A DNA stretch of 64,000 nucleotides from Elusimicrobiota bacterium (GCA_016928195.1 JAFGLF010000006.1:10807-74806); one strand, 5' to 3'. Positions 6,911 to 61,407 are shown, counted from the first letter of the stretch. The notes: generated by a model not told the origin, from the sequence alone. Program-made: numbers and translations.

Positions 6911-6994
6911 ATACAAATTACACGAATGATAACGAATAACACGAATACTTTTGTTCGTGAGATTCGAATTTTTAATTCGTGACATTCGGGAATT
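6911..6994. repeat. Periodic inverted-repeat hairpin (CGAAT units then ATTCG units)
   Basis: Fills the intergenic gap; 5' arm nearly identical to that of 18561-18646 read on the - strand. Confidence 0.85.
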
Positions 6995-6997
6995 ATC

Positions 6998-7324
6998 ATG
7001 AAGATTGTTAAAAAGCCTTGGGGATATGAGAAGTGGTTTGCAGTTGCAGAAAAATACGTTGGGAAAATTCTTTTTATAAAAAAAGGACGTCGTTTAAGCA
7101 AACAGTACCATAAGGTAAAACACGAGACTATTTATACTTTTAAAGGCAGATATATTATGGAGCTGGCTAAAGGTAAAAAATTGATGAAACAAGGGAGTGT
7201 AATTGTTATACCGCCAAAAAGAATTCATAGAATGTATGCAAAATTTTGCGATGTAATGCTTATTGAGGTATCGACACCGCAGGTTAAAGATGTTGTAAGA
7301 CTGGAAGATGATTATGGGCGGTAA
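6998..7324 (+). CDS. Cupin, mannose-6-phosphate isomerase type II-like
   Basis: KPWG, LSKQYH..KHE, HR, EVSTP..DVVRLEDDYGR. Confidence 0.85.
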   Translation: MKIVKKPWGYEKWFAVAEKYVGKILFIKKGRRLSKQYHKVKHETIYTFKGRYIMELAKGKKLMKQGSVIVIPPKRIHRMYAKFCDVMLIEVSTPQVKDVVRLEDDYGR

Positions 7325-8807
7325 CTCGATAAATATAAACTTTGGAACCGACGGATGGCGCGGTATTATAGCAAAAGATTTCACGTTTAAAAATGTTAGA
7401 ATTGTTTCCCATGCAATAGCAGACTATATAAAATCAGGCAGTAGGCAGCAGGCAGTAGGCAGTAGCCTACACCCTACACCCTATACCCTATACCCTGCCG
7501 TAGTAGTCGGTTATGACAATCGCTTTCTTTCCGAGAAATTTGCAGCAGAAGTCGCTAAAGTTATTTCTGCAAATGCTATAGATGTACACATTTCACAAAC
7601 AGCGGTAACCTCTCCATCAGTTTCTCAGTACTGTCAAAAAAATAATTGTATCGGAATAATGGTAACTGCAAGTCATAATCCTTCGGTATGGAACGGATTG
7701 AAGATTAAAATGGAGTATGGCGGTTCTGTAACTGAAGAAGTTATAAATACTATTTCGTTAAATCTTTATAAAAATAGCGTAAAAATCAGTCCTGATACCG
7801 CAGGGCGGAATATAAAAACAGTTGATATTCTGAAGGGATATAAAAAACATCTTAAGGCACTTATAAAAATAGGTTCAGGTATAAAATCAAGGGTTATTAT
7901 TGATTCAATGTGCGGCAGCGGTTTGGGTATTTTTGAACAGATATATAAAGGGAAAGTATGTTCTATTCGCAACTACAGAGATCCGTTGTTCCCAGGATTT
8001 AACCCGGAACCAATAGAAAAGAACTTGCATGAACTGAAAAAAGAAGTATTAAAGAATAAAGCTGCTGCCGGATTTGCTTTGGATGGTGATGCTGACCGTC
8101 TCGGAGTTATTGATGATAAAGGCCGTTTTTTGCCTCCTCATATTGTATTCCCTTTGATTTTATTATATCTTTTTGAGTATAAAAAGTTAAAAGGAAAAGT
8201 TGTTCAGACGATTTCCCTTGGATATCTTTCCGAACGTATCGCAAAGAAATATTCTCTTCCGTTTGAAGAGGTGCCTGTCGGTTTTAAGTACATATGTGAA
8301 AAGATGTTAAAAGAGGATGTTTTGCTGGGCGGAGAAGAATCCGGCGGGTATGGATGGAAAGGCGGGATACCTGAAAGAGATGGTGTGCTGAATGCACTGC
8401 TGCTAACGGAAATGATGGTGAATTTAAAAAAGAAACTTTCATTTTTAGTGGATGACTTACAAAGAAGATTTGGCAAATCATTTTTTATGAGGAGAGATAT
8501 CAAACTTTCTAATCCGGTAGATAAACAAAAATTTACCGAAGAAATAAAGAAAAAAATTCGTAATAATTCGGGTTTTAATTCGTCTGCCTCGCCGTCGTCA
8601 GGCGGGTGTCAATTCGTATCTTCTGTTGCAGAAATCAGAACATATGATGGTATAAAAATAATTTTTAATCCGCCGGAGGCGGGGTGGCTTTTACTCAGGC
8701 CTTCGGGAACCGAACCGGTTCTAAGAACCTATTCGGAAACCTGTTCAATAGCCAGGACAAAAAAACTTCTTGATTTCGCGGAAAAAATTTGCTTTAATAT
8801 AACATAA
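7308..8807 (+). CDS. Phosphoglucomutase/phosphomannomutase
   Basis: FGTDGWRG, TASHNP, DGDADR, GEESGG, RPSGTEP. Confidence 0.93.
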   Translation: MIMGGNSININFGTDGWRGIIAKDFTFKNVRIVSHAIADYIKSGSRQQAVGSSLHPTPYTLYPAVVVGYDNRFLSEKFAAEVAKVISANAIDVHISQTAVTSPSVSQYCQKNNCIGIMVTASHNPSVWNGLKIKMEYGGSVTEEVINTISLNLYKNSVKISPDTAGRNIKTVDILKGYKKHLKALIKIGSGIKSRVIIDSMCGSGLGIFEQIYKGKVCSIRNYRDPLFPGFNPEPIEKNLHELKKEVLKNKAAAGFALDGDADRLGVIDDKGRFLPPHIVFPLILLYLFEYKKLKGKVVQTISLGYLSERIAKKYSLPFEEVPVGFKYICEKMLKEDVLLGGEESGGYGWKGGIPERDGVLNALLLTEMMVNLKKKLSFLVDDLQRRFGKSFFMRRDIKLSNPVDKQKFTEEIKKKIRNNSGFNSSASPSSGGCQFVSSVAEIRTYDGIKIIFNPPEAGWLLLRPSGTEPVLRTYSETCSIARTKKLLDFAEKICFNIT

Positions 8808-8808
8808 A

Positions 8809-8908
8809 CAACGCAAATATACGCGAATAAGAAAAAACAACGCGAATACACACAAATAATTAGAGACAATTAGCGTGAGATTTGCGACCATTCGCGTTAT
8901 AGCGAAGC
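8809..8908. repeat. Periodic inverted-repeat hairpin (ACGCGAAT/ATTCGCGT) ending in GCGAAGC
   Basis: Direct reading; same units at 11491-11620, 19737-19832, 50230-50294. Confidence 0.8.
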
Positions 8909-8923
8909 GATTAGGAGGGAAAA

Positions 8924-10120: not shown

Positions 10121-10153
10121 ATAGTGATATAAAAATAAACCCAGCCCCTCTGA

Positions 10154-11488
<1,335 letters not shown>

Positions 11489-11490
11489 CA

Positions 11491-11620
11491 GAACGCGAAT
11501 ACACGCGAATAGAAAAGGAAACGCAAATTAACGCGAATGAAACAGACATAGATATTCGTCCGCCGCGGCGGAGTAATTCGGTCTTTAATTTGTGGTAATT
11601 TGTGTTTCGTATGTATGTGC
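11491..11620. repeat. ACGCGAAT periodic hairpin with nested TCCGCCGCGGCGGA palindrome
   Basis: Direct reading. Confidence 0.8.
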
Positions 11621-11630
11621 AAAATTCACA

Positions 11631-11659
11631 TTGACAAGAATGTGGATATTTGTTATAAG
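11631..11659 (+). promoter_or_regulatory. sigma70-type promoter
   Basis: TTGACA-17 bp-TATAAG with extended TG. Confidence 0.55.
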
Positions 11660-16873: not shown

Positions 16874-16955
16874 GATTACACAGAGTATTAGAGACGATTA
16901 CACAGATTAGTAAATTGGTTTTATCTGTGTAATCTGCCTTTTAATCGCTGTAATC
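16874..16955. repeat. GATTACACAG / ATCTGTGTAATC periodic hairpin
   Basis: Direct reading; flanked by small palindromes GCGACTTCGTCGC and AGTATCGGA..TCCGATACT. Confidence 0.8.
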
Positions 16956-17002: not shown

Positions 17003-17470
17003 ATGTTACCAAAAAGAAAAAATTCATTGCGATTCAAGAACTGGAATTATAACCTGCCAGGACCATATTTTGTTACAGTTTGTATAGTTAATCGTAGGGG
17101 TGGACTTGTCCACACGCTATTTGAGCAAGAACCTGTGCGAAATTCTGTAATAGAAGTAATTAAAACCGTAGGGGCGGATTTATCCGCCCGAATTCACTGT
17201 ATGGTTATTGCAATAGACCATTTTCACATATTAGTTACCTTGCCGGATGGCAAGATAATTTCATTATCAAAACTTATAGCAATAATAAAAGTTCGTATAA
17301 CGCAATATTTTAGTCGGGCAGGTAAACCTGCCCCTACGCCGCCGAAAATTTGGCAAAGGTCATATTATGAACACATTATCAGAGATGAAAAGGATTTTTT
17401 ACAGAAAGCCAGATATATTGAAAACCATCCGGTAAAAGAAATTGGGAACGATTATGCTGAATGGCATTAA
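17003..17470 (+). mobile_element. REP-associated tyrosine transposase (RAYT, Y1 HUH family)
   Basis: RKNSLR..YFVTVC, HUH motif HFH, WQRSYYEHIIR, YIENHP; three internal GTAG-palindromes. Confidence 0.88.
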
Positions 17471-18560: not shown

Positions 18561-18646
18561 AAGTACCGAATAAAAGCCGAATATAAAACCCGAATTACGC
18601 GAATAATTATTCGAGTTATTCGTTATCATTCGTGTAATTCGTACTA
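18561..18646. repeat. CGAAT/ATTCG periodic hairpin spanning lptF-lptG junction
   Basis: On - strand: TGA t [AGTACGAAT...ATTCGGTACT] taac ATG. Confidence 0.85.
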
Positions 18647-19736: not shown

Positions 19737-19832
19737 TAACGCGAATGTACGCGAATAAAGAAACAACGCGAATTTACACGAATAAAAAATTTGTCCGCCG
19801 AGGCGGATTAGATTAGCGTTAATTTGCGTTTG
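19737..19832. repeat. ACGCGAAT periodic hairpin with nested TCCGCCGAGGCGGA
   Basis: Direct reading. Confidence 0.75.
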
Positions 19833-19960: not shown

Positions 19961-20178
19961 TAAAGGCAAACTCTGAGAGGCGGTTCAATAGTTCAATGGT
20001 TGAAATGTTCACAAGGACTTAAGAACCAATGAACATACTAACAAATGAACTGACTTTTTGGGGGGCGCAAAGCCACAACCCAGAACGGCGGTTCACAGGT
20101 TCAATGGTTCAAATGTTCTTAGGAACTAATGAACATACGAACAAATGAACTGACTTTCTGGGTGCCGGGTTACCGAAA
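19959..20178 (+). ncRNA. c-di-GMP-I (GEMM) riboswitch aptamer with greatly extended P2 and P3
   Basis: Core motifs in order: TAAAGGCAAAC, GGCGCAAAGCC, GCCGGGTTACCG; pairable P2 and P3 stems; downstream terminator. Confidence 0.8.
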
Positions 20179-25524: not shown

Positions 25525-25663
25525 TTTTTTTCTTGACTTTTTCCGGTTATTTTATAAAATAGTAAAAATGAGTAAGAAATTGAAGGATTTAAAGATTCAA
25601 AAATTAAATCCGGCAATGGAAAACTGATTTTTTTAATCTTTTAGTTGTTTTTATGGAGGTTCA

Positions 25664-26710
25664 ATGCGTGTAGGTATTAATGGTTTTGGCAGGATAGGCA
25701 GGCTGGTTGCAAGAGTAATACTTGAAAGGAACAACAAGAACATGGAACTTGTTGCGGTAAATGATTTGTTTGATGCAAAGGCAAATGCACACCTTTTAAA
25801 GTATGATTCCGTTCATGGTCAGTTTCCGGGAGATGTGAAAGCCGAAGGTTCCGATGTGATTTCGGTCAACGGTAAAAAGATAAAGGTTCTTAAAAAGAAA
25901 GACCCGACTGAACTTCCGTGGAAGGATCTGGGTGTTGAAGTCGTCGTTGAATCGACCGGACTCTTTTTGCTGAAAAAGGACGGCGTTAATAAAAAAGGCA
26001 AAGAGGTAAAAGGTGCTGAAAATCACATAACAAAGGGCGGTGCTAAAAAAGTTGTTATTTCCGCGCCTGCTCAGGGTGAAGATTTAACTGTGGTTTTGGG
26101 TGTCAATGATGATAAATATGATCCCAAAAACCATCATGTCGTTTCAAATGCTTCGTGTACTACAAACTGTCTGGCACCAGTCGCAAAGGTTATTAATGAT
26201 AACTGGGGAATCGAAAAAGGTCTTATGACAACAATACATGCTTATACCAACGATCAGAGAGTACAGGATATGGCACATTCCGATATGCGCCGTGCCCGTG
26301 CTGCTGCCGTTTCAATGATTCCTACAACTACTGGTGCTGCAAAAGCAATCGGACTTGTAATTCCGGAACTCAAGGGAAAACTGGACGGTTTTGCAATCCG
26401 TGTTCCGACCCCTAACGTTTCTGTTGTTGATTTATCCGCTACTTTAAAGAAAAAAGCGACAGCTGAAGAAATAAATGCTGCATTGAAGGCAGCATCTGAA
26501 GGTAAGATGAAAGGGTATTTGGGTTATTCAGAAGAACCCCTTGTTTCGATTGATTTCAATCATTGCCCGCTTTCGTCGGTTGCAGACCCTCAATTTACCA
26601 AAGTTATTGACGGTAACTTCGTAAAGGTACTTGCCTGGTATGACAACGAATGGGGATATTCCAACAGAGTAATCGACCTGATCGAATTCATGATGAAAAA
26701 AGGTATATAA
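25664..26710 (+). CDS. gap: Glyceraldehyde-3-phosphate dehydrogenase type I
   Basis: [28 protein letters not shown]. Confidence 0.98.
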
Positions 26711-26804
26711 TGGAGGCAGTTAAGAAGATTAAAAGATTAAAAGATTAGAAAAATTAAAATCTTTCAATCTTTCGAATTTTCCCAATCTTTTTAATTGATT
26801 TTAA
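26711..26804 (+). repeat. TGGAGG + 81-nt AAAGATTAA/TTCAATCTT periodic hairpin
   Basis: Near-identical copy at 30322-30418; looser copy at about 25575-25645. Confidence 0.85.
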
Positions 26805-28037
26805 ATGCCAAAACTTACGATTCGTGATATTGATTTAAAAAATAAAAAGATTTTGATGCGTGCGGATTATAATGTTCCTTTGGATAAATCCTCGCCGCGG
26901 CAGATTACCGATGATACAAGAATAAAGGAATCAATTCCGACCATAAAGCATCTTATCGGGCAGGGCTGTAGTCTTATTCTGTGTTCCCATTTGGGTCGCC
27001 CAAAAGGCAAGGCGTTGCCTGAGTTTTCACTTAAGCCGGTTGCTGAGCGTCTGTCAGAATTGCTTGGACAGGAAGTAAACCCCCACACCAATGGACAGTC
27101 TATTGGTGTGAGGGTAAAATTTGCATCCGACTGTGTCGGAGATGAAGTAAAAAAGCTTGCCGGAAGTTTAAAACCAAAGGATATATTATTGCTTGAAAAC
27201 CTGAGGTTTCATCCTGAAGAGGAAAAGAACAACGAAAATTTTGCCAAACAGCTTTCTGAATTGGCGGAGTTCTTTGTTCAGGATGCATTTGGGACTGTTC
27301 ACCGTGCCCATGCCTCAACAGCAGGTGTAAATAAATTTTTGCCTTCCGCAGCCGGATTTCTCCTTGAAAAAGAAATAAAGTACTTGGGTGATTCGCTGCA
27401 GAATCCCAAGAGACCTTTTGTCGCGATTTTAGGCGGTGCAAAAGTTTCGGATAAAATCGGCGTAATCGAAAATCTTATACCTAAGGTTGATGCCATAATT
27501 ATCGGCGGTGCAATGGCATATACGTTTCTAAAAGCTCAAGGTATACGAGTGGGAAGTTCCCGTGTTGAAGAAGATAAACTGGAAGTAGCAAAGGAGATTT
27601 GTAAAAAATCCGGTAAGATTACATTTCTTTTACCGGTTGACCATGTTATTGCCGACAAGCTTGATAAAGCCGCAAATGTAGAAAATACAAACGGTATTGA
27701 AATCAAAGACGGCTGGATGGGTGTTGATATAGGTGATTCCTCGATATCAAGATATTGTACTGTAATACTGTCGGCAAAGACGATTGTTTTAAACGGACCT
27801 ATGGGTGTTTTTGAGATTGATAGGTTTGCTAAAGGGACAAATGCAATTTCATATGCTATTGCCGATGCAACTTCAAACGGAGCTGTTTCAATCATCGGCG
27901 GCGGTGACAGTGTGTCTGCGGTCAAGAAAGCCGGTCTGGCAGAAAAGATGTCGCATATTTCTACAGGCGGCGGAGCTTCCCTTGAATTCCTGGAAGGAAA
28001 AGAACTTCCCGGAATTGCTGCATTAAAGGATAAGTAA
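26805..28037 (+). CDS. pgk: Phosphoglycerate kinase
   Basis: RADYNVP, SHLGRP, LLENLRF, GGAKVSDK, STGGGASLE. Confidence 0.98.
   Translation: MPKLTIRDIDLKNKKILMRADYNVPLDKSSPRQITDDTRIKESIPTIKHLIGQGCSLILCSHLGRPKGKALPEFSLKPVAERLSELLGQEVNPHTNGQSIGVRVKFASDCVGDEVKKLAGSLKPKDILLLENLRFHPEEEKNNENFAKQLSELAEFFVQDAFGTVHRAHASTAGVNKFLPSAAGFLLEKEIKYLGDSLQNPKRPFVAILGGAKVSDKIGVIENLIPKVDAIIIGGAMAYTFLKAQGIRVGSSRVEEDKLEVAKEICKKSGKITFLLPVDHVIADKLDKAANVENTNGIEIKDGWMGVDIGDSSISRYCTVILSAKTIVLNGPMGVFEIDRFAKGTNAISYAIADATSNGAVSIIGGGDSVSAVKKAGLAEKMSHISTGGGASLEFLEGKELPGIAALKDK
27080..27114. mobile_element. 35-bp palindromic mini-element in frame in pgk
   Basis: TAAA duplicated at 27076-79 and 27115-18; 39 bp net = NPHTNGQSIGVRV. 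Confidence 0.9.
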
Positions 28038-28043
28038 CCACTC

Positions 28044-28139
28044 GGGAAAACTTTTTTTGAGCCGCTCGGCACCAGCTCGCTCGGAGATTTGCTCGTGAAT
28101 GTATAGTCGCAAATCGAGGCTCTTCAAAAAGTGTTTCCC
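28044..28139. repeat. About 95-bp imperfect inverted repeat
   Basis: GGGAAAACTTTTTTTGAGCC ... GGCTCTTCAAAAAGTGTTTCCC. Confidence 0.6.
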
Positions 28140-28168
28140 TCGCAGAGATATAAAAGTGGGAGGGGTAA

Positions 28169-29053
28169 ATGCGAAAAGCTATTTTTATTTTTGGATTACT
28201 GTTTGTAAGTGTATCCTTTTGTTCTGCTGAACCTTATGACTATCTGGCAAAGAGAATATCAAAAGGTGCAAAAAAACTGACCAATAAAAAAGTTGCTGTT
28301 TTACCCTTTCAATACTATGACGGAAGAAAATCCCCGGGTTCCAATATTGTATCCGAACATCTGATAACAAAAATTGTGGAACGGGGAAAACTTCAGGTTG
28401 TTGAAAGAGCATTACTTAACAAGATTATGGATGAAATGAAACTGGAACAGTCGGGTGTTATCGACCAGGAAACCACAAAGGAATTGGGTAAGGTTTTGGG
28501 TGTTGAAGCCGTAGTAACAGGAACATTGATTGAAGAAACAGATTCCGAATGGGTTAATATAAATACAAGGCTTATAAAAGTGGAAACAGGAGACATTCTG
28601 GTTGCGGCAAGCAAAGAAGTAAAAAAGACATGGGAAGATGCGACTTTTTCTGTAGTAGAAGATACACCGGAAGAAAAGACAGAAGAGTCACCGGCACATG
28701 AGCCGGACATGAAAGTTGAGGAACCTGAATCGATTAAAATAGGTCCGGGTGACGGAGAAAAAAAAATACCTGAAGCTATAGTGGAATTAAAGAAAAGTCA
28801 TAATCTTTTTAAAGCAAAGCGCTATAAAATGGCAATAGATGAAGCAAAAAATGTTTTGAAGAAATATTCCGATAAGCCTGTTGTAGCGTCACGCGCTTTG
28901 TTTATTATTGGTAGATCGCATGAGTTCCTAAAACAACCCAGGATGGCCAGAGCCGCCTACATAAAAATAATTAAAGACTATCCTTTAAATACCAAGGCAG
29001 TAAAGGGAGCACAAGAACGTCTGCGTTATCTTGATCGGGGACAGAGACGGTAA
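28169..29053 (+). CDS. Exported CsgG/FlgO-like domain protein with C-terminal TPR
   Basis: Signal peptide; VAVLPF..VVER..ELGKVLGVEAVVTG..RLIKVETG; TPR-like helices. Confidence 0.7.
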   Translation: MRKAIFIFGLLFVSVSFCSAEPYDYLAKRISKGAKKLTNKKVAVLPFQYYDGRKSPGSNIVSEHLITKIVERGKLQVVERALLNKIMDEMKLEQSGVIDQETTKELGKVLGVEAVVTGTLIEETDSEWVNINTRLIKVETGDILVAASKEVKKTWEDATFSVVEDTPEEKTEESPAHEPDMKVEEPESIKIGPGDGEKKIPEAIVELKKSHNLFKAKRYKMAIDEAKNVLKKYSDKPVVASRALFIIGRSHEFLKQPRMARAAYIKIIKDYPLNTKAVKGAQERLRYLDRGQRR

Positions 29054-29073
29054 AATAAATAAGGTAAGGTAAA

Positions 29074-29108
29074 CCCCCACACCAATAGAACGACCATTGG
29101 TGTGGGGG
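29074..29108. mobile_element. 35-bp palindromic mini-element, intergenic
   Basis: TAAA at 29070-73 and 29109-12. Confidence 0.9.
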
Positions 29109-29118
29109 TAAATAAATT

Positions 29119-30321: not shown

Positions 30322-30418
30322 TGGAGGCAATTAAAAGATTAGAAAATTAAAAGATTAAAAAAATTAAAATCTTTCAATTTTTCAAATTTTTCCAATCTTT
30401 TTAATTGATTTTATTTAA
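30322..30418 (+). repeat. TGGAGG + 80-nt AAAGATTAA periodic hairpin
   Basis: Copy of 26711-26804. Confidence 0.85.
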
Positions 30419-30760
30419 ATGTATGGTTTTGTTTTGACTATTCATATTATAGTAAGTGTAGGTTTAATTTTGATTGTACTTTTGCAAGCTGGTAAGGGTG
30501 CAGGAATTTCCGGACTTTTCGGAGGGGGAAGTAATGATTCGGCTTTCAGCGGGGCTACCACACCGGGTGTTATTAAAAAGATTACAACCACAATGGCTGT
30601 GTTGTTTATGATAACGTCTTTAGCTTTAACGGTCATTATAGCAAAATCCAGAAGAAGGTCTTTGGCTGAAACTATACCTGTTGCTCAGCCCACACAGCAA
30701 CAGCAGCAGCCAGCCCCGTCTCCATCAGGTCCGGATGCTGTGCCACCGGCACAAGAGTAG
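30419..30760 (+). CDS. secG: Preprotein translocase subunit SecG
   Basis: VLLQAGKGAGISGLFGGG, two TMs. Confidence 0.95.
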   Translation: MYGFVLTIHIIVSVGLILIVLLQAGKGAGISGLFGGGSNDSAFSGATTPGVIKKITTTMAVLFMITSLALTVIIAKSRRRSLAETIPVAQPTQQQQQPAPSPSGPDAVPPAQE

Positions 30761-30839
30761 AGAGACAGACCGCGAAGGATGAGGGACGAGAGACGAAACA
30801 TCGTCCATCTTCCGTCGTCCATCGCATCCGGCGTTAATT

Positions 30840-30921
30840 GCTGGGGTGGCGGAATTGGTATACGCGCACGTTTGAGGGGCGTGTGGAGAAATCCGTGCGG
30901 GTTCAAGTCCCGCCCCCAGCA
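30840..30921 (+). tRNA. tRNA-Leu(GAG), CCA not encoded
   Basis: Acceptor GCTGGGG/CCCCAGC, anticodon loop TTGAGGG, long variable arm, TTCAAGT T-loop. Confidence 0.95.
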
Positions 30922-30941
30922 TTCCTGTCCAAAATAAAATA

Positions 30942-38364: not shown

Positions 38365-38510
38365 TCGAAATATAACTATTGACTTCGGCCAATCATTACT
38401 TACCTGATACACATATCATAAAATATTATTAGTTTTTATTAAATCCGCTGAGACCACAAAGGTTTTATCTCTGTGTCATCTGCGGGTTTTCTGCGTAATC
38501 TGCGTGATTA

Positions 38511-41056: not shown

Positions 41057-41154
41057 GATTACACAGATTTTAAGAGACAATTACACAGATACTACAGATT
41101 GAGATTTAATCTGTGTAATCTTGTGGTTAATCTGCGTAATTCCGCCGCGGCGGA
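41057..41154. repeat. GATTACACAG/ATCTGTGTAATC hairpin with TCCGCCGCGGCGGA
   Basis: Direct reading. Confidence 0.8.
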
Positions 41155-41258
41155 TTGATGGTTTTTACAACAGACACTAAAAAGTATCGTTTTACCTATT
41201 AATAATATTACCACCACCCAACCCCGGTAAAAAAAAATTAATAATTTTCGAAAGGTAC

Positions 41259-45496: not shown

Positions 45497-45628
45497 GAAA
45501 TACATGGAAATACGATAGAAATACAATGGAAATACGGTAGAAATATGGTAGAAATACAGTGGAAATATAATTGTGTTTCTATGAATTTCTACGAGTTTCC
45601 CGCCGAAGGCGAGGCTCGCCTCTGGCGG
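45497..45628. repeat. 11-mer tandem GAAATACRRTR array with inverted arm and nested GC palindrome
   Basis: About 7 GAAATA units followed by TTTCTA units and CCCGCCGAAGGCG..GGCGG. Confidence 0.8.
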
Positions 45629-45663
45629 CAATTTATTTCATTTTAATAAAGGAGTTAAGCGTT

Positions 45664-46833: not shown

Positions 46834-46935
46834 AAAAAACGATGTAGACAGATAAAAAAGCAGATTCAGACAGATAATTTATATGTATAAGGCCGTTAGC
46901 CATCTGTTTGAATCCGTAAGTTATCTGCTTGAATT

Positions 46936-49323: not shown

Positions 49324-50224
49324 TGAAAGTGTTCTGGACGGATTAAAACAATCTTACCGCGGTAAAGTGAGAAATGTATACGAAGTTGATAACGACAGAT
49401 TACTGATTATTTCCAGTGACAGAATATCATGTTTTGACCATATCCTGCCGACTTTAATTCCAGAAAAAGGAAAAATATTAACGAGAATATCTGTTTTCTG
49501 GTTTAATTATTTAAAGGATATTATGGATAACCACTTGATTGCAACCGATACAAAAGATCCTGTGGTTTCAAAATTTATCGGTGCAAACTTGATGCAGGAA
49601 CTTAAAGACCGAATTATGCTTGTTAAGAAGGCTAAAAGGATGGATATTGAATGTATTGTTCGGGGTTATTTGTCTGGGAGTGCATGGAAAGAATATCAAA
49701 AAAGCGGCAGCATTTGCGGAATTAAGTTGCCGCCCGGATTAAAAGAGTCTGAAAAGCTTCCGCAGGTACTGTTCACGCCTTCTACAAAAGCGCAGGATGG
49801 TCAGCATGATATTAATATTACCGAAAAAGAGGCGGAAAAGGTCGTAGACGGTTTATTACCGGGTGTAAGCGGGGCTGAACTTGTTAAAAAGGTTAAAGAG
49901 AAAAGCATAAAACTATATAAGAAAGCATCTGAATATGCGCTGTCGAAAGGCATTATAATCTCCGATACGAAATTTGAATTTGGAATCGATAATGGAGAGA
50001 TTATCTTGATTGATGAGATTTTCACTCCGGATTCTTCGAGATTCTGGGATAAAGAAAAGTATTCGTCCGGGGGGGCTCAGCCGAATTTTGATAAACAGTT
50101 TGTCAGGGATTATCTTATATCGATTAATTGGGATAAACAGCCGCCCGTACCCGAACTTACTGAAGATATTGTCAGGAAAACCAGAGAGAGATATATTGAA
50201 GCGGAAAGAAGGTTGTGTGGCTAA
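49307..50224 (+). CDS. purC: SAICAR synthetase
   Basis: GKVR, SDRIS.FD, ECIVRGYLSGS, DTKFEFG, DEIFTPDSSRFW. Confidence 0.97.
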   Translation: MNNAFNESVLDGLKQSYRGKVRNVYEVDNDRLLIISSDRISCFDHILPTLIPEKGKILTRISVFWFNYLKDIMDNHLIATDTKDPVVSKFIGANLMQELKDRIMLVKKAKRMDIECIVRGYLSGSAWKEYQKSGSICGIKLPPGLKESEKLPQVLFTPSTKAQDGQHDINITEKEAEKVVDGLLPGVSGAELVKKVKEKSIKLYKKASEYALSKGIIISDTKFEFGIDNGEIILIDEIFTPDSSRFWDKEKYSSGGAQPNFDKQFVRDYLISINWDKQPPVPELTEDIVRKTRERYIEAERRLCG

Positions 50225-50306
50225 AATACTACACGCGAATACACGTCCGCCGCGGCGGATTGGGTTTGCGAAGATTCGCGTTTCTGAGCGAAGCGGAAGA
50301 GGTTGC

Positions 50307-50765
50307 GTGGTTAAATATAAAATTCTTGTAAAACATAAAGACGGATTTTTTGATGCAGAAGCAGAAAATATTAAAAAGGATATTCTGGATTCGGGCATAA
50401 GAGGTATTGATTCCGTGGAAGTAGCACAGCTTTATGAAATTTCCGGCAATGTTTCTGATAAAGAGATTAGTAGAATCTGTGATAAACTCCTTGCCGACCC
50501 TATTACGCAATCATTGTATGTGAACTCCAATCCCGAAAAAAACAATAGCAGTAGAATAGAAGTAAATTATAAAAGCGGTGTAACTGATGCGGTGGCGGAT
50601 ACTGTAAAAATAGGAATAGCTGATATAGGAATGAAAAACAAGTTGTCTGTAAGAACCGGAAAAAGATTTTTTTTAAAAGGAAACTTAACGGAAGAAGAAC
50701 TGAAAATGATAGCGGAAAAAATCCTTTCAAATACTGTTGTTCAGGAGTATAGCATAGAAAGGTAA
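50307..50765 (+). CDS. purS: FGAM synthase PurS subunit, tandem domain
   Basis: Two PurS-like halves (LLADPI; GVTDAVA..ILSNTVVQEY); alternative in-frame GTG at 50217. Confidence 0.75.
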   Translation: MVKYKILVKHKDGFFDAEAENIKKDILDSGIRGIDSVEVAQLYEISGNVSDKEISRICDKLLADPITQSLYVNSNPEKNNSSRIEVNYKSGVTDAVADTVKIGIADIGMKNKLSVRTGKRFFLKGNLTEEELKMIAEKILSNTVVQEYSIER

Positions 50766-52354: not shown

Positions 52355-53065
52355 ATGAGTAAAATAAATGATTGGATAACTAGTATTTCTACTTTTGTTT
52401 TAGCAATTGCAACAATAGTTTTAGCAACTTACACAGTAAGGCTTTTTTTAATAAACACAGAACTTGTTGAAAGTACAAAAGATTATGTGAATGCAACTAA
52501 GAGCATGGCAACATTAAATAAAGAATATGTAAAAGAAACTAGGGATTTAGTAAAGACTACAATTGAACAAACAAACTTTATGCGTCAACAATGGGAATAT
52601 GAACATAGTCCACATATCGTTGCCGACTATTCTGTTAGGTTTGGCGGACCAGGTGTGGAAAACCCTTCTCTAAAAATATATTTAGAAAATATTGGTAAGG
52701 GTGCGTGTGAAATACTTCAATATAAATTGAGTGTTTTTGATAAAAGCGGTTCTATTGAGAATTTTTATAGTGGACAAAAATATACAATATGGCATGGGTA
52801 TATAACTAAACTGCTTGAAAAATTAAAAAATGGTTTTGAAGTTGATCTTAAATATGCTTTTGCTAACTCAACTAAAACCAAAAATTACAAATTTAAAGTA
52901 AATCTTCTTAAACCTTCTGAAAGAGACATGTCTGATATATATAATATTTTAGAAAAACTTCACAAAGATTTTGCATATATGTATCCAGAATCTAAATATA
53001 ATATTTCTGGTAAGTTACATAATATTAATGAAAGCCTTGAAAAGATTGAGAAGAAGACTAAATAG
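52355..53065 (+). CDS. Hypothetical protein, N-terminal TM helix plus coiled region (AT-rich insert)
   Basis: ORF track; hydrophobic N-terminus; no recognised motif. Confidence 0.6.
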   Translation: MSKINDWITSISTFVLAIATIVLATYTVRLFLINTELVESTKDYVNATKSMATLNKEYVKETRDLVKTTIEQTNFMRQQWEYEHSPHIVADYSVRFGGPGVENPSLKIYLENIGKGACEILQYKLSVFDKSGSIENFYSGQKYTIWHGYITKLLEKLKNGFEVDLKYAFANSTKTKNYKFKVNLLKPSERDMSDIYNILEKLHKDFAYMYPESKYNISGKLHNINESLEKIEKKTK

Positions 53066-53154
53066 TAGACTAAAAAAGTATAGTCTGTGAAGAAATGTAA
53101 TCATACACCATTGGAGAGCCGACTATTAGTTCATTTTTGTAAAGGTAATATTAT

Positions 53155-54525
53155 ATGTACACAAACCAATCAACAGTAATATCTTTATCAAAACATCAAG
53201 ATGTAGTAAATAATAATATTGAAAATACCAAGAAGGATTTCGGTATTTTTTTTACGCCTGAACGAATTGTTAACTTTATGATTGAAATGATTGATATGAA
53301 AAAAATATCTTCAAGAAATGATGTTTTTATACTTGAACCAGCATGTGGTTTAGCACAATTTTTATATGGAGTTAAAAGAATTAAACCATCTCTTTATAAT
53401 AAATCAAAACTTTTTGGAGTTGAGGTTAATCAAGATATACAAAATTATTCAAAAACATTACCTTTTAGTAAAGAATACGCTTTATATAAAGAAGATTATT
53501 TATTGTTTGAAACAAATATTCACTTTGATATAATTATTGGTAATCCACCTTATGGAATACCAAGTATGTCAAAACATTATAAGATAAAAACATCATCAGA
53601 GACAAAACAACTGTATAAGAATATATATAAAACTTGGTCTGGTAAATATAATGTTTATGGGGCTTTTATAGAAAAGTCTATAAATTTACTAAACAACAAT
53701 GGGCAATTAATCTTTATAGTACCTGCTACTTTTATGATTCTGGATGATTTTAAAAAACTAAGAAACTATTTATCAAATAGTGGGTATACTTCTTTAACTT
53801 ATACCGGGCCCGATGTGTTTAAGCCTGAAGCTGATGTGTCATCGGTTATATTGTATTTTCGTAAGTCTCATAAGGTGAATAGTTTAAAACTTGCCGAATA
53901 TAAAAATAATAGTATACATACTGTTTATGAAAATAGTAATTGGAATGGAGAGGTAATTAGGTTCGTGACAGAGTATACAAAAAAATTGGATAATCGATGT
54001 TCATATAAATTAGGTGACATTTATAACATAAATATATCTTCAAGAACCCCCGAAATTAAGGATAATATTTATATTAAAAAAGGAAAACCTTTAAATATAA
54101 ATGATTATTACCCATTACTTAATGGCCGTAACTTAAAATGTAATAAAATAAATTATGATAATCTGACAGGATATTGGATAAAAAAAGAAAATTCAAATAA
54201 ACTGCGAGGATATTATAATAAACCGCATATAGTTATTGGGTTGGGTTTTCGTGAAGATGGTAGATTGGCAGCAGCTTATGATAGAAAATGCTATCCATGG
54301 ATGGGTGATATTTATCACTTGTCGAAAAAAAATGATTTGTTTTTTGCCAATTTTGATATCTCTGAAATAGATTTGTTAGCATATCTTAATTCTGATTATG
54401 TAAAAAGGTATATTAAGGAAACATATCGTGAAATTACTTATCATTTAAGTATTACTCAATTAAAGAATTTACCTGTACCGTCCGATAAAGAATGGAAAAT
54501 AATTAAAGCAAGGGGAAAAATGTGA
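53155..54525 (+). CDS. N6-adenine DNA methyltransferase, M.TaqI-like (gamma class)
   Basis: FFTP, LEPACG, GNPPYG, TW.GKYN.YGAF.EK, VPAT, GRNLK, YPW: collinear with M.TaqI as recalled. Confidence 0.92.
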   Translation: MYTNQSTVISLSKHQDVVNNNIENTKKDFGIFFTPERIVNFMIEMIDMKKISSRNDVFILEPACGLAQFLYGVKRIKPSLYNKSKLFGVEVNQDIQNYSKTLPFSKEYALYKEDYLLFETNIHFDIIIGNPPYGIPSMSKHYKIKTSSETKQLYKNIYKTWSGKYNVYGAFIEKSINLLNNNGQLIFIVPATFMILDDFKKLRNYLSNSGYTSLTYTGPDVFKPEADVSSVILYFRKSHKVNSLKLAEYKNNSIHTVYENSNWNGEVIRFVTEYTKKLDNRCSYKLGDIYNINISSRTPEIKDNIYIKKGKPLNINDYYPLLNGRNLKCNKINYDNLTGYWIKKENSNKLRGYYNKPHIVIGLGFREDGRLAAAYDRKCYPWMGDIYHLSKKNDLFFANFDISEIDLLAYLNSDYVKRYIKETYREITYHLSITQLKNLPVPSDKEWKIIKARGKM

Positions 54526-55178
54526 GATTAGATGAAGCAAGATTCGTGGAAATTGTCAGCGAACTTATAAAGTTTAAATCCTCTACAACAAGGATTCCTA
54601 TTAAAGCAACTAGCTGGGAAGAATTGATTTGTGCAACATTAATTTTTATGTATGGAGCTGATAAGATAAATTGGGACCCACAATCTCATGAAAAGAGTAT
54701 TGATATTACGTTCAAAACAAATGGAGATATTTTTAAAGTTTCAGCTAAAGCAGGTGAAATAAAGAAAGGTATACTTACGATATCATCTTACAGATTAACA
54801 ACATTCAATACCTTAAATGAAAAACTAAATTTTATTAAAAAGCAGCATAATTCTTTTGATTTTTATCTAATTTGTGCACGAGCAGTAGAAGGTAATTTTA
54901 TAACATATAATGTTATAAAAGCACAGGCTAAAAGATTAGCTGATGCTTGGTTTACTGATAATAAAAATTGGTCAAAATCCTCTGGGGGCTATATATTGAA
55001 ATCGGGGTTAGGTTTTAATGCAAATATATGCCATAAGATGTCTGACCAATTATGGTATTCAATTCCAATGTCATATTTTAATACTGATGAAGTAATAGCC
55101 CATATCCCAGTTAATAAAAATGATTTAGGGAAAGGATTAGTAGAATTTTTAAAAGAAAGATTTTTAAACAACAAATGA
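54522..55178 (+). CDS. Putative type II restriction endonuclease
   Basis: Coupled to MTase by GTGA overlap; WEE..SID..VSAK resembles a PD-(D/E)xK-type core. Confidence 0.55.
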   Translation: MRLDEARFVEIVSELIKFKSSTTRIPIKATSWEELICATLIFMYGADKINWDPQSHEKSIDITFKTNGDIFKVSAKAGEIKKGILTISSYRLTTFNTLNEKLNFIKKQHNSFDFYLICARAVEGNFITYNVIKAQAKRLADAWFTDNKNWSKSSGGYILKSGLGFNANICHKMSDQLWYSIPMSYFNTDEVIAHIPVNKNDLGKGLVEFLKERFLNNK

Positions 55179-57526: not shown

Positions 57527-57543
57527 GTTAACCGGAAGGGTAT

Positions 57544-59142: not shown

Positions 59143-59155
59143 CGTGAATGTCTGC

Positions 59156-59242
59156 TGATATGTTTATATGTTGATACGTTGATATGTAAAATCCTATATC
59201 CGTATCAGCGTATCACCGTATCATCTTATTCTTTCGCGAAGC
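59156..59242. repeat. 8-mer TGATAYGT / CGTATCA periodic hairpin ending in GCGAAGC
   Basis: Direct reading. Confidence 0.75.
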
Positions 59243-59247
59243 GAATT

Positions 59248-60042
59248 ATGAAAAAAGTCAACGTAATAGTATTAAAAACAGCCGGAACAAATAATGATCT
59301 TGAAACGGCACAGGGTTTTAGACTTGCAGGTGCCGACGCTGATATTGTGCATATAAACAAACTTTTGAGAAATGAGGTTAACATAAAAAAAAGCGAGTAT
59401 AAAATCCTTGCTATCCCCGGCGGTTTTTCCTATGGTGATGATATTTCGGCAGGCAAGATTTTTGCAAATAAATTAAAATATAAACTGGAAAAAGGAATAA
59501 CGGAATTTGCGAAATCAGGAAAACTTATTATAGGTATTTGTAACGGATTCCAGGTTCTTGTAAAATCAGGGCTCCTTCCTTTTACGGACGGTAATCAATC
59601 CGCCACTCTCACATATAATGATTCCGGGAAATTTGAATGCAGGTGGGTATATTTAAAGACAATGCGGAATGCGGAATCCGGAACCCGGAATTTTTGGGTC
59701 AAGGGTCTTCCGGAGATAATTCAGCTTCCTGTGGCACATGGCGAAGGAAAGTTCGTTTGTTATAAAAATGCTGGTGACTTAATTAAAAGGAGAGGGCTTA
59801 TAGTTTTTAAATATGTCGATGAATATGGCGAGGAAAAGGGTTATCCGTATAATCCAAACGGGTCATTTGATAATATTGCCGGTATAACAAATACAGAGGG
59901 CAATATTTTCGGTCTTATGCCTCATCCTGAAAGGTTTGCGATAAAATATCATCATCCTTTCTGGACAAGAAATAAAAATACTGAGCCGTATGGACTACAG
60001 ATTTTAAAAAATGCTGTGAATTATTCAAAGGAGAATTTATAA
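59248..60042 (+). CDS. purQ: FGAM synthase subunit PurQ
   Basis: GTNND, PGGFSYGD, GICNGFQ, AHGEG, MPHPER. Confidence 0.97.
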   Translation: MKKVNVIVLKTAGTNNDLETAQGFRLAGADADIVHINKLLRNEVNIKKSEYKILAIPGGFSYGDDISAGKIFANKLKYKLEKGITEFAKSGKLIIGICNGFQVLVKSGLLPFTDGNQSATLTYNDSGKFECRWVYLKTMRNAESGTRNFWVKGLPEIIQLPVAHGEGKFVCYKNAGDLIKRRGLIVFKYVDEYGEEKGYPYNPNGSFDNIAGITNTEGNIFGLMPHPERFAIKYHHPFWTRNKNTEPYGLQILKNAVNYSKENL

Positions 60043-61319
60043 TGGGTGGAACGAATATTCTTATTATTGGTTCCGGAGGGAGAGAACATGCTATTGCCTG
60101 GAAATTAAAACAATCTAAAAAGGTATCAAAGCTTTTCTGTATTCCCGGCAATGGCGGAATTTTACAGGATACTGCAAGGGCTGATGGAGGTAAAATTGAT
60201 ATTCTTGACTTCGACGGGATATACGGGTTTGTAAAAGAAAATAAAATTGATCTGACCATAGTCGGTCCTGAGCTTCCTCTCTCTGAAGGTATAGTTGATT
60301 ATTTTAAAACAAAAAATTTAAAGATTTTTGGGCCTGACCGTAGATCAGCACAGCTTGAATCAAGTAAGATTTTCGCAAAAGAGTTCATGGAAAAATATAA
60401 CATACCGACAGCCGCTTTTGAAGTCTTTGATAATTATGATTTGGCAGTTAAACATATTGAACATTATACATCACACATTGCGCGTTCATTAGTCGTTAAA
60501 GCTGATGGCCTTGCTGCCGGGAAAGGTGTTTTTGTTTGTGATTCCAAAGAAGATGCTGAGGATGCTGTAAAAAAGATAATGGTAGATAAAATATTCAGTA
60601 GTGCAGGGAAGAGGGTTATTATTGAAGAGAAACTTACGGGACAGGAAGCATCGCTCATGGCATTGTGTGATGGTAAAACCATACTGCCTTTAGTACCATC
60701 TCAGGATCACAAAAGAATCTTTGATGGGGATAGGGGTCCGAATACCGGCGGTATGGGTGCATATGCACCGGCAAAAATACTGGACGAGGCTTCTGCTAAA
60801 AAACTAATATTTGATAATTTTTTAAGAGGATTGAAGGAAGAATCCCTGGATTTTAAGGGTGTAATTTACGCAGGAATAATGTTAACCAATCATGGCATAA
60901 GTGTTCTGGAATTTAATGTTAGGTTTGGGGATCCCGAGACGCAGGTTATACTTCCGCTTTTAAAGACAGATTTACTAGAACTTATTTTGGCGACGGTTGA
61001 CGGGAATCTTAATAAATGTAAAATAAGTTGGGAGGATGGTAGCTGTGTGTCTGTTGTTTTAGCTTCTGGAGGATATCCGGGAAAATATGATAAAGGAAAG
61101 GAAATTTTTGGTTTGAATAATATAGGTGATGCTGTTGCTTTTCATGCAGGGACGAAATTTGAAGACAATAAATATTTGACAAGTGGCGGCAGGGTATTAA
61201 ATGTTTCTGCAATTGATTCTACTCTTAAAGGGGCAATTTCAAAGGTTTATAAAAACGTTGAAAAAATAAAATTTGATGGCATGCATTTCCGGCGTGATAT
61301 TGCTGCCAAAGGACTATAA
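60042..61319 (+). CDS. purD: Phosphoribosylamine-glycine ligase
   Basis: GSGGREHA, KADGLAAGKGV, QDHKR, NTGGMG, EFNVRFGDPE. Confidence 0.98.
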   Translation: MGGTNILIIGSGGREHAIAWKLKQSKKVSKLFCIPGNGGILQDTARADGGKIDILDFDGIYGFVKENKIDLTIVGPELPLSEGIVDYFKTKNLKIFGPDRRSAQLESSKIFAKEFMEKYNIPTAAFEVFDNYDLAVKHIEHYTSHIARSLVVKADGLAAGKGVFVCDSKEDAEDAVKKIMVDKIFSSAGKRVIIEEKLTGQEASLMALCDGKTILPLVPSQDHKRIFDGDRGPNTGGMGAYAPAKILDEASAKKLIFDNFLRGLKEESLDFKGVIYAGIMLTNHGISVLEFNVRFGDPETQVILPLLKTDLLELILATVDGNLNKCKISWEDGSCVSVVLASGGYPGKYDKGKEIFGLNNIGDAVAFHAGTKFEDNKYLTSGGRVLNVSAIDSTLKGAISKVYKNVEKIKFDGMHFRRDIAAKGL

Positions 61320-61323
61320 AAAT

Positions 61324-61407
61324 GATTACAGCGATTAATCCGCCAGCCGGCGGAGATGATTTCAGTGATTAGAATTATTGTAATCGTTGTACATAATCAC
61401 CGTAATC
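61324..61407. repeat. GATTACAG/GTAATC periodic hairpin with nested TCCGCCAGCCGGCGGA
   Basis: Direct reading. Confidence 0.75.

Follow-up and report, generated by a model that had tools for sequence, protein, structure and literature searches.

The 23S rRNA genes of Leptospira and other bacteria carry intervening sequences (IVSs), some with an ORF of their own, and known rRNA IVSs are excised by RNase III. MITEs and palindromic repeats are another kind of small bacterial element, and include Correia/nemis, ERIC, RUP, BOX and REP/REPIN, the last with its REP-associated tyrosine transposase (RAYT). The ends of Tn7 and Mu and the subterminal repeats of Ac/Ds and En/Spm contain several transposase-binding sites per end.

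The 23S rRNA IVS of Coxiella burnetii is reported to carry an S23p ORF (PMC4990558). Heptamer tandem repeats have been described in Xanthomonas and Nostoc, with convergent pairs in Xanthomonas (Rehm 2015, PMC4692102), and TAACTGA repeats in Beggiatoaceae, cyanobacteria and Bacteroidetes, with a patchy spread across phyla (MacGregor 2015, PMC4679880). In the accessible portions of these two papers, the repeats consist of short words in tandem that lie close to stop and start codons between aligned ORFs, as do those described below, but they are read as G-quadruplex or translational signals and are not tied to hairpin cassettes or to the two gene families treated here.

The window analysed here is a stretch of 64,000 nucleotides from an Elusimicrobiota bacterium. 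At 17 of its 51 junctions there is a hairpin built from tandem copies of a short word followed by inverted copies of the same word. Fifteen were found by script, to which come those at lptF/lptG and dut/guaB3, where the ORFs called, by longest-ORF heuristics, overlap the hairpin. The elements are listed below; z gives the RNA fold of each region scored against 200 dinucleotide shuffles.

4328..4360, plus strand: half copy of the GATTACACAG family with two right-arm words ATCTGTGTAATC, 3' of a glycosyltransferase gene; no fold alone
6911..6994, plus strand: CACGAAT-word hairpin at the manC-like/cupin junction, between the stop at 6910 and the ATG at 6998; z -3.32
7436..7496, plus strand: (AGGCAGT)n(CCTACAC)n, in frame and translated inside the phosphomannomutase gene (pmm); z -2.27
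8809..8911, plus strand: ACGCGAAT-family hairpin of 4+4 words with a GCGAAGCGA tail, followed by the AGGAGG of metK; z -3.65
11491..11620, plus strand: hairpin of ACGCGAAT/AATTTG words 3' of ahcY, with a nested TCCGCCGCGGCGGA mini-hairpin; z -3.91
16874..16955, plus strand: GATTACACAG-family hairpin with small outer hairpins, 5' of a RAYT gene; z -4.58
18561..18646, minus strand: CGAAT-word hairpin that exactly fits the gap from the lptF TGA to the lptG ATG; z -2.97
19737..19832, minus strand: ACGCGAAT-type element 5' of lptF with a nested TCCGCCTCGGCGGA; z -2.77
20083..20150, plus strand: GGTTCA/TGAAC word hairpin 5' of sprA; z -4.16
26717..26797, plus strand: AAGATT-word hairpin at the gap/pgk junction; z -4.65
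30328..30407, plus strand: AAGATT-word hairpin at the apgM/secG junction; z -1.80, weak
30765..30830, plus strand: GACGAGA-word hairpin between secG and a tRNA gene; z -5.23
38441..38510, no strand assigned: partial copy with ATCTG/TAATCTGCG words at a convergent-gene junction; z -2.92
41057..41141, plus strand: GATTACACAG-family hairpin followed by TCCGCCGCGGCGGA; z -4.63
45497..45598, plus strand: GAAATAC 11-mer array with a shorter inverted arm at the dut/guaB3 junction; z -5.24
46845..46932, plus strand: CAGAT-word hairpin at the guaB3/guaA junction; z -5.18
50230..50300, plus strand: short ACGCGAAT-type element with a nested TCCGCCGCGGCGGA and a GAGCGAAGCGG tail at the purC/purS junction; z -1.15 for 50230-50283 alone
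59156..59247, plus strand: TGATAYG-word hairpin with a TTCGCGAAGCGAA mini-hairpin tail that ends 2 nt before the purQ ATG; z -5.67
61324..61407, plus strand: GATTAC-word hairpin with a nested TCCGCCAGCCGGCGGA at the purD/purE junction; z -4.56

The sequences that an earlier note had read from the window are present where it placed them, and the junction of lptF with lptG reads as it stated: TGA, t, hairpin, taac, ATG. Two elements, 20083-20150 and the in-frame copy at 7436-7496, were absent from its list. The match it reported at 31 of 32 nucleotides between two 5' arms is real, although the partner of 6916-6947 is the reverse complement of 18608-18639 and not of an arm at 18637. Stable folding was found for 14 of the 17 listed regions (z -2.77 to -5.67, with 0 or 1 shuffle as good), and folding brings the stop and start codons side by side. 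The exceptions are 30328-30407 (11/200 shuffles as good), 50230-50283 (25/200), where the element extends beyond the end first given, and 4328-4360, which had been listed as a half copy from the start.

A single grammar with many word types is also found in the genome as a whole, where tandem words followed by inverted words are 5-9 times commoner than control orientations. At least three tandem 5-mers together with at least three reverse-complement copies form 65 clusters, against 7 for the reversed and 9 for the complemented word; with at least three plus at least two copies, there are 153 clusters against 29 and 32. Since the strict 5-mer scan recovers only 10 of the 17 listed sites, these counts are lower bounds. 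More than 10 word families coexist in the genome. The element at 8809-8911 is the seed of the ACGCGAAT family, which has 50 dispersed full-length copies of 67-83% identity, and copy pairs in other families reach 94-97%.

The link to GxxExxY and four-helix-bundle genes, which the earlier note had proposed, is borne out: all 12 such loci of the genome (7-8 PF05635 and 5 PF13366) have tandem words on one side and the same words inverted on the other. No ORF is present in the copies of the window; a PF05635 ORF between complementary ends is found in their ORF-bearing relatives. Of 154 intergenic elements that lack an ORF, 122 can be assigned to a family with an ORF-bearing member elsewhere in the genome. 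In the window, the AAGATT family of 26717-26797 is that of a four-helix-bundle cassette, the TGATAYG words of 59156-59247 are those of the four-helix-bundle cassette C62:302649, and the pmm element shares its words with a four-helix-bundle pseudogene cassette on C62. With a strict criterion applied to relatives (two or more copies per side of an inverted 6-mer), 23 of 31 four-helix-bundle and 10 of 17 GxxExxY loci are flanked in this way. The two cargo types go with different word classes (8/17 versus 0/31, using a pattern chosen post hoc).

ORF-bearing copies encode PF13366 or PF05635 proteins and no known transposase. Conservation of the active site (E, D and E-x-K) is complete or almost complete in 16 GxxExxY sequences: E28 and D67 never vary, and E77 and K79 are present in at least 90%. 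The AlphaFold model (pLDDT 94.8) is nearest, by Foldseek, to lambda exonuclease (E 5.2e-4) and Cas4 SSO0001 (E 9.3e-4). With this active site on a modelled restriction-endonuclease-like fold, the GxxExxY cargo is a PD-(D/E)XK nuclease by predicted activity. The four-helix-bundle protein has no catalytic motif, which weighs against the cassette reading proposed below, as two unrelated cargoes would need two mechanisms or a common host factor.

It is probable that the hairpins are ORF-less members, either non-autonomous or decayed, of a family of small insertable cassettes. A full cassette would have a word of 7-14 nt, specific to its family, in 2-7 tandem copies, optionally with a mini-hairpin outside them, then a small gene for either a GxxExxY PD-(D/E)XK nuclease or a four-helix bundle (Avd/23S-IVS-protein), and then the same words inverted; some families add a tail, either a mini-hairpin or Shine-Dalgarno-like, immediately before the ATG of the next gene. 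The words may be binding sites for the cassette's own protein, probably multimeric, which would join the two arrays and, in the nuclease type, cut; empty copies could thus be moved or copied in trans. Once transcribed, the hairpin would make the insertion harmless by folding the insert away and thereby keeping the stop codon next to the start codon or, in 23S rRNA, one strand of helix 45 next to the other; RNase III may also cut the hairpin RNA out, as it does with rRNA IVSs. Binding, cutting and movement are all putative activities, proposed from genome sequences. No description of this element class was found in the literature searched.

The earlier note had called the element structure-conserved, which is not supported: it is the words that are conserved and not the pairs. 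In the arms of the 50 ACGCGAAT copies, canonical pairs make up 1111 of 1313 cells (shuffles, 1123.7 +/- 4.9), so there is no covariation. At the degenerate word position, pairing is rarer than shuffles give (74/188 cells against 84.2 +/- 3.8), as it is for TGATAnG (4/22 against 8.4). Fixed word positions of the ACGCGAAT family have a consensus frequency of 0.94, compared with 0.70 for spacers and loop and 0.45 for the flank. This pattern of substitution among copies shows purifying selection on the words as words rather than as base pairs.

Homologues of the GxxExxY protein whose gene is flanked here by GATTACACAG words have 53-80% identity and come, by their record titles, from at least 15 lineages. 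At 52 of 72 such loci, the 12-mer GATTACACAGAT (one mismatch allowed) precedes the gene and its complement follows it; the wrong orientation is seen in 3/72 and 5/72. The flanks of these homologues thus show one nuclease clade travelling with one word across many phyla. Recent transfer of whole cassettes, rather than selection on the words, could account for this conservation, but the word is still present in 21 of 36 loci in the more distant half of the proteins, which argues against that reading. Because the arms keep their words without compensatory pairing and a 12-base word persists in at least 15 lineages, we read the words as probable protein recognition sites of a mobile cassette, whose insertion the RNA hairpin would make tolerable.

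At the junctions of the manC-cupin-pmm-metK-ahcY-porV block in 11 relatives, there are other word families or none. In G001 and G010, the element is absent from manC/cupin and the genes overlap by ATGA. Compared in this way, the gene orders show cassettes and their empty forms to be DNA insertions that come and go at junctions. No PF13366 match at E <= 1e-10 was found in G002, G003 or G004 (94, 91 and 96% complete), and G003 and G004 nevertheless bear GATTACACAG/ATCTGTG hairpins. That empty copies are maintained, or moved, in the absence of the protein also weighs against the cassette reading.

The resemblance to IVSs lies in the long stem within a transcribed region and in the PF05635 cargo common to both. 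In the genome's own 23S rRNA, the helix 45 loop also contains a hairpin of 92 nt that follows the same word grammar, inserted at model position 1218/1219, and the genome encodes RNase III (242.6 bits); by analogy, this copy fits RNase III excision as known for rRNA IVSs. However, the window elements lie between protein genes, and once within one, rather than in the loops of 23S helices 9, 25 or 45, and are mostly ORF-less, and the second cargo family of the cassettes, the GxxExxY nuclease, has the same design. Tandem-word arms were not found described for IVSs in the literature searched.

Like MITEs, the elements are small intergenic insertions that are dispersed and co-transcribed and form hairpins, and a few "master" copies stand beside many empty ones; there are many similar short non-coding copies with inverted ends. 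Unlike MITEs, they have no known transposase, target duplication or simple terminal inverted repeat, their ends being arrays of short words, of more than ten families in one genome. No target-site duplication was detectable (n=43; longest substring common to both flanks 4.40, mismatched controls 4.41). As in Tn7, Mu, Ac/Ds and En/Spm, each end has several copies of one short word, here putatively protein-binding, which keep one direction within an end and are reversed at the opposite end, and the words are kept while spacers drift. Those systems have known transposases and target duplications, whereas the candidate protein here is a predicted PD-(D/E)XK nuclease or four-helix bundle of 120-140 aa.

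It is also conceivable, though unlikely, that the hairpins serve the host as RNA, being intercistronic stem-loops selected in the mRNA for processing by RNase III or RNase E, for stabilisation or for coupling of translation, with the ORFs as incidental passengers. Strong folds, the exact fit from stop to start and the helix 45 copy in a genome with RNase III are all in keeping with this, and sense RNA folds slightly better than antisense (82 versus 60 elements, Wilcoxon p 0.028; G-U pairs 398 versus 322). An orientation bias is seen in the two families with distinguishable arms, at 62:5 and, for the GAAATAC family of 45497-45598, 14:1 with transcription, but is unmeasurable in five more symmetric seeds (24:15, 7:13, 9:14, 9:10 and 5:4). 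The sense-fold advantage and the co-orientation of the two families are equally expected from RNA-level selection. Such a role is harder to square with 50 copies that have no compensatory changes, with junctions that, in relatives belonging to the same bacterial family, are empty or occupied by a different word family, with the non-complementary arms at manC/cupin in G004 and with words that accompany a nuclease gene across phyla. The pmm copy also speaks against it: it encodes a variable loop with AIADYIKS on one side and VVGYDNRF on the other, both conserved, and its translation in frame disfavours obligatory removal from RNA.

Much less probable is that these are REP/REPIN-like palindromes moved as single-stranded hairpins by the RAYT encoded at 17003-17470. 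The gene lies directly 3' of the element at 16874-16955 and scores 82.1 bits with model NF047646 (cut-off 80), the elements have the shape of a hairpin, and target-site duplication is missing, as in IS200/IS605 relatives. However, the genome has no second RAYT gene, this one has an element on one side only, and there are more than 10 unrelated word families whose words are linked to the cargo genes and not to RAYT, which sets the elements apart from the RAYT/REPIN class.

Growth in place by slippage, as simple-sequence repeats forming non-B DNA (G-quadruplex or cruciform) and having no mobility, has been proposed for GGGNATC heptamers and is, if anything, less probable still here. Arms can contain perfect tandem units, such as GGTGATAC three times in G008, unit numbers vary, and 70-75 convergent heptamer pairs lie between aligned ORFs according to Rehm 2015 (PMC4692102). 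Against this, dispersed copies have spacers, loop and tail in common over their full length, and the ends of the cassettes show conservation between phyla. G-tracts are absent from most of the words here: CGCGAAT, CACGAAT, GATTACACAGAT, TGATAYG, AAGATT and GAAATAC lack GGG runs, which places the window outside the G-quadruplex heptamer class (at least four G-tracts of at least three G), although some four-helix-bundle families of relatives are G-rich (GGGGATAG).

Ordinary intrinsic terminators, which the position after stop codons might suggest, are hardly credible and already largely refuted, as the bulged, A+T-rich stems have neither the U-tract nor the transcription-unit-end position of that class: at least six T occur in the next 10 nt in 23/143 sense and 22/143 antisense cases, and of 163 intergenic clusters in the strict scan only 4 lie between convergent genes (88 of 1970 junctions), with no enrichment there, while 143 are at co-directional junctions (1793), inside long gene runs.

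The cupin, lptG, guaA and purQ genes, said to have no Shine-Dalgarno sequence, indeed have no GGAG, GAGG or AGGA before the ATG, but this does not make them special, because only 673 of 1962 called genes have one. At the manC/cupin junction, and only there, ATGA or TATGA is repeated at both ends of the element.

The periodic hairpins that fill gene junctions in the window belong to a defined cassette family that is inserted at the DNA level and gained and lost at orthologous junctions. Full-length copies without an open reading frame (empty copies) are dispersed through the genome, and selection acts on their words, the short family-specific units that make up the arms, not on base pairs. Word and protein are linked across phyla, and one copy sits in an rRNA gene.

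The architecture that the earlier note had read from the sequence is found at its sites: 2-7 tandem units with a core of 5-14 nt, a short centre, and the cores then inverted. The arm match of 31 out of 32 nt (6916-6947 against the reverse complement of 18608-18639) and the lptF/lptG geometry, TGA t (hairpin) taac ATG, were likewise confirmed. RNA folding of each region against 200 dinucleotide shuffles gave z-scores of -2.77 to -5.67 in 14 of the 17 listed, so that stable folding holds for most of the set. The remaining three are weaker or unfolded:

30328-30407: weak fold, z -1.80
50230-50283: z -1.15; this interval cuts the element short
4328-4360: half copy; no fold

Two more elements lie at 20083-20150 and, in frame within a gene, at 7436-7496. 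By our own count, elements fill 17 of 51 gene junctions in the window.

The source assembly comprises 2.37 Mb in 87 contigs, with 37.7% G+C. Clusters of at least three tandem 5-mers followed by at least three reverse-complement copies number 65, compared with 7 for the reversed and 9 for the complemented word; with at least two inverted copies, there are 153 clusters versus 29 and 32 in the same controls. A scan of both strands yields 240 clusters, 163 of them mostly outside ORF calls, even though those calls make 92.5% of the genome coding. The strict 5-mer scan recovers just 10 of the 17 sites in the earlier list. Elements take up a third of the window's junctions, and the 2.4-Mb genome has them at 163 or more intergenic sites. 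The longest-ORF starts of lptG, guaB3, purS and purQ extend into hairpins at 18561-18646, 45571-45660, 50010-50320 and 59179-59250, while the real starts sit immediately past the elements. In annotation, such hairpins distort start-codon calls and should not be labelled terminators or regulatory RNAs by default.

The alternative that these are ordinary terminators, raised in the earlier note, is not borne out: 143 of the 163 intergenic clusters lie between co-directional genes, and a T-rich tract follows the element in 23 of those 143. Another 7 clusters are divergent, 4 convergent and 9 at contig edges or inside calls (background junctions of the genome: 1793 co-directional, 89 divergent, 88 convergent). 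The idea that the reverse orientation is avoided as a would-be terminator was also rejected, T-rich tails being found at 23/143 versus 22/143 on the other strand.

An orientation bias relative to transcription is seen in two families. The ACGCGAAT family is oriented with its flanking genes at 45:3, or 62:5 at a shorter length cut (37:2 when scored with the arms of the ORF-bearing copy), and the GAAATAC family at 14:1. Five other seeds show no provable bias (24:15, 7:13 with 10 ambiguous, 9:14, 9:10 and 5:4), strand assignment being unreliable there because the arms are nearly symmetric. Folds of the sense RNA are slightly more stable than those of the antisense (82 vs 60 elements, Wilcoxon p 0.028). 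The orientation bias may stem from transcription or from replication, as local GC skew tracks the coding strand (skew of 0.135 on that strand; 1593 vs 148 genes on the 'leading' strand). A search for RNA data sets matching 25600-31000 listed none, and three metatranscriptome runs gave only short matches of 90-95% likeness, at conserved bits and the tRNA, with no match across the hairpins and no junction reads.

The anatomy of the elements is clearest in the family of 8809-8911, whose 50 full-length genomic relatives are 67-83% identical to it, none of them an opposite-strand match. In the alignment, four left words CGC[D]AAT arranged as 2+2 are followed by a short loop and four inverted words. 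Most copies have a stop triplet 0-8 nt ahead of the first word and a GAGC-GNA-GCG(A) tail whose end lies 2-12 nt ahead of the next ATG; some tails also read as GGAG. The tail variants GAAC-GAA-GTG and GAGT-GAA-ACG are seemingly compensatory in a two-pair GNA-triloop mini-hairpin, as judged by eye and uncounted. In other families, whole-element pairs reach 94-97% identity, and copying must therefore be recent. No target-site duplication was detectable in general among the element flanks.

A GC-GNA-GC tail, up to TTCGC-GAA-GCGAA, is also seen at 8899-8911, 50284-50300, 59229-59243 and many other loci of the source genome, 2-12 nt before start codons, with AC..GT and GT..AC variants that appear compensatory by eye. 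GCGAAGC is an unusually stable DNA mini-hairpin. As a general feature of the elements the tail was rejected, since it occurs downstream in 19/143, upstream in 1/143 and at 48/791 control junctions.

The earlier note took the elements to be conserved in structure, a reading that the alignments do not support. In the 8809-8911 family the six fixed positions of the word have a consensus frequency of 0.94 and its degenerate position one of 0.59; spacers and loop give 0.70 and the 5' flank 0.45. RNAalifold found just 9 pairs in the family alignment, and the four word pairs were therefore set by hand. Canonical pairs fill 1111 of 1313 cells versus 1123.7 ± 4.9 after shuffling of partners between copies, a count reached by 300 of 300 shuffles, and the degenerate word position pairs in 74 of 188 cells versus 84.2 ± 3.8; compensatory pairing is thus absent, and a smaller, regex-selected copy set agrees. 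Read in word orientation, the degenerate position is G, A or T in both arms and almost never C. The TGATAnG family shows the same behaviour, with 4 of 22 complementary versus 8.4. The sole positive signal, CnCGAAT (12/18 vs 7.2), arises because sub-families have one word variant common to both arms. At the manC/cupin junction of the relative G004, the arms are not complementary at all, (AAAGTCCAATGTCC)n being followed by (TAATCTGTG)n. Words and spacers can be identical within an arm while the two arms have just the core in common, as with GGTGATAC x3 versus ATATCAnC x3 in the relative G008. Judged from these alignments, pairing is a by-product of the same word being kept in two orientations and not itself the conserved property.

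The same words surround two kinds of gene. The genome has 7-8 matches to PF05635 (23S_rRNA_IVP, four-helix-bundle) and 5 to PF13366 (PDDEXK_3, 'GxxExxY'), and every one has tandem words upstream and inverted words downstream. These are the words of the empty hairpins: CACGAAT, ACGCGAAT, GATTACACAGATTA, CGCAGATTACGC, TGATAYG, AAGATT, GTTCTT and GGCAGTA. By single-linkage BLAST, 122 of 154 intergenic empty elements cluster with an ORF-bearing copy of the same genome, in keeping with the suggestion in the earlier note that similar repeats flank such genes and that the hairpins may be empty derivatives. Four families without an ORF-bearing copy account for 15 of the others and singletons for 17; at least one 'empty' element is actually an arm of an ORF-bearing locus. 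The ORF lies on its neighbours' strand in 11 of 11 ORF-bearing loci between co-directional genes, and a twelfth locus, between convergent genes, is a fragment. The cargo types differ in word class, C[AG]C[AG][AG]A[ATC] being present at least twice in both arms of 8/17 GxxExxY versus 0/31 four-helix-bundle loci, a post hoc pattern from the window's relatives, whose loci are non-independent as they come from kin genomes. Such hairpins are also kept in genomes without a detectable GxxExxY gene.

Gain and loss can be followed in eleven related genomes, from the same family or order, whose genes are about 65-80% identical in DNA and in which the gene order manC-cupin-pmm-metK-ahcY-porV is maintained. 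In a search of metagenomes for same-species relatives, with the cupin protein as query, no relative exceeded 84% identity.

Content of the manC/cupin junction in the source genome (G000) and its relatives (G001-G011)
G000: CACGAAT
G003 and G007: GATTACA-type
G008 and G009: CACGGAAC
G006: CGCGAAA
G005: CGCAGAT
G004: chimera
G002: short remnant
G011: unrelated spacer
G001 and G010: nothing; ATGA overlap of the genes

The remaining four junctions of the block vary likewise. At filled manC/cupin sites, ATGA or TATGA is repeated at both ends.

Copies are also found within genes. The element at 7436-7496 in pmm (phosphomannomutase) reads (AGGCAGT)n(CCTACAC)n, and its in-frame product, GSRQQAVGSSLHPTPYTLYPA, lies between two conserved blocks. 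It forms a hypervariable loop that is absent in G011 and reaches about 35 residues in G006. This shows that the element entered as DNA and that it is translated. In the genome's own 23S rRNA gene (contig C39, locus L154, ~2204-2295), an extra 92 nt sit precisely in the loop of helix 45; they consist of AAUGAYU-like words together with the inverse of these, and this region folds at z -4.96. RNase III is encoded in the genome. In the same rRNA gene, the region of helix 25 is extended by 43 nt (~1511-1553) with no obvious words.

Across phyla, a single-protein query with the GxxExxY protein flanked in this genome by GATTACACAG words retained 80 relatives (L156-L235) at 53-80% identity. Their record titles include Nitrospirota, WOR-3, Omnitrophota, Planctomycetia/Scalindua, Elusimicrobia, Nitrospinota, Deltaproteobacteria, Atribacteria, Latescibacterota, Clostridia and Dehalococcoidales, among others. 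Identities of up to 80% across so many titled phyla point to recent horizontal spread of the cassette. The 12-mer GATTACACAGAT, with at most one mismatch, is present upstream in 58 of 72 loci with full flanks, its complement downstream in 58, and both together in 52; in the wrong orientation they are seen in 3 and 5 of the 72. In the more distant half of the relatives, both sides are present in 21/36. Many loci have the ATG inside the last left word and the TAA stop inside the first right word. A 3' hairpin, GGTATAAT...ATTATACC, is found in 19/72 loci and is followed by AGGAG ahead of the host ATG in 18 of those 19.

Among sixteen GxxExxY proteins (30-72% identical to the first), E28, D67, Q92, G105, N109, F110 and R119 are invariant and E77 and K79 nearly so. 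The structure model is a confident one (pLDDT 94.8), and its closest matches, at modest scores (E 5e-4 to 1e-3), are lambda exonuclease and Cas4; a PDB sequence search with a GxxExxY ORF region gave 0 matches.

In the mechanism that we propose, the cassette protein would bind the word arrays, several subunits per array, and pair both ends, and the nuclease type would also cut. Empty copies with intact words could be acted on in trans. Copies would survive just where a co-transcribed, self-folding insert does little harm, and this would account for the filling of junctions, the juxtaposition of stop and start, the portable Shine-Dalgarno-like tails and the helix 45 site. We entertain, at somewhat worse than even chances, a joint reading in which the word arrays and the GxxExxY nuclease (in parallel, the four-helix-bundle protein) form a hitherto unrecognised class of prokaryotic mobile element. 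Its tiny sequence-specific protein would recognise arrays of its own 7-14 nt word at either end, and would move or copy the cassette, along with its empty derivatives, into transcribed sites that tolerate a hairpin, namely operon junctions, loops of rRNA helices and surface loops of proteins. The class would spread between phyla, and both rRNA intervening sequences and the unexplained heptamer repeats of cyanobacteria and Xanthomonas would originate from it.

In many phyla the same design recurs around two very large families of small, uncharacterised proteins. If the words are the recognition sites of these proteins, PF13366 and PF05635 (outside retroelements), now of 'function unknown', would gain a role, the origin of rRNA intervening sequences would be explained, and published heptamer-repeat puzzles would get a new reading. 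There might also be a minimal, sequence-programmable DNA-binding or cutting module, with a natural catalogue of protein-word pairs. Neighbouring literature includes papers on rRNA intervening sequences, Rehm 2015 (PMC4692102) and MacGregor 2015 (PMC4679880). No paper tying PF13366 or PF05635 to word-array hairpins or empty intergenic copies was found in a search of the literature outside subscription journals and supplements.

Other features were noted as well. A gene for a REP-associated tyrosine transposase (RAYT; 17003-17470; NF047646, 82.1 bits, cut-off 80) is directly 3' of a GATTACACAG hairpin; it is single, with no second RAYT copy in the genome, and its far side lacks an element. Five elements of the window contain or adjoin small G+C-rich hairpins, TCCGCC-N4-6-GGCGGA (at ~11559-11572, and inside or next to 19737-19832, 41141-41160, 50245-50260 and 61338-61355), and this hairpin may be a second mini-insertion. 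As an element component it was set aside, the tie being modest: 7 of 116 CCGCC-N3-9-GGCGG sites genome-wide are at strict-scan elements and 61 in coding sequence. A G+C-rich repeat of ~110 nt, with three copies 92-97% identical (C34:48840-48898, C49:14726-14784 and C31:53354-53412), has AGCGA-type words and a GAGCGAAGC...GCTTCGCTC palindrome, unlike the A+T-rich word hairpins. Finally, the purine-synthesis run holds three genes between purH and purL (52355-55178), two of them unknown; the middle one (53155-54525) is a fragment of a PglX/BREX-like adenine methyltransferase.
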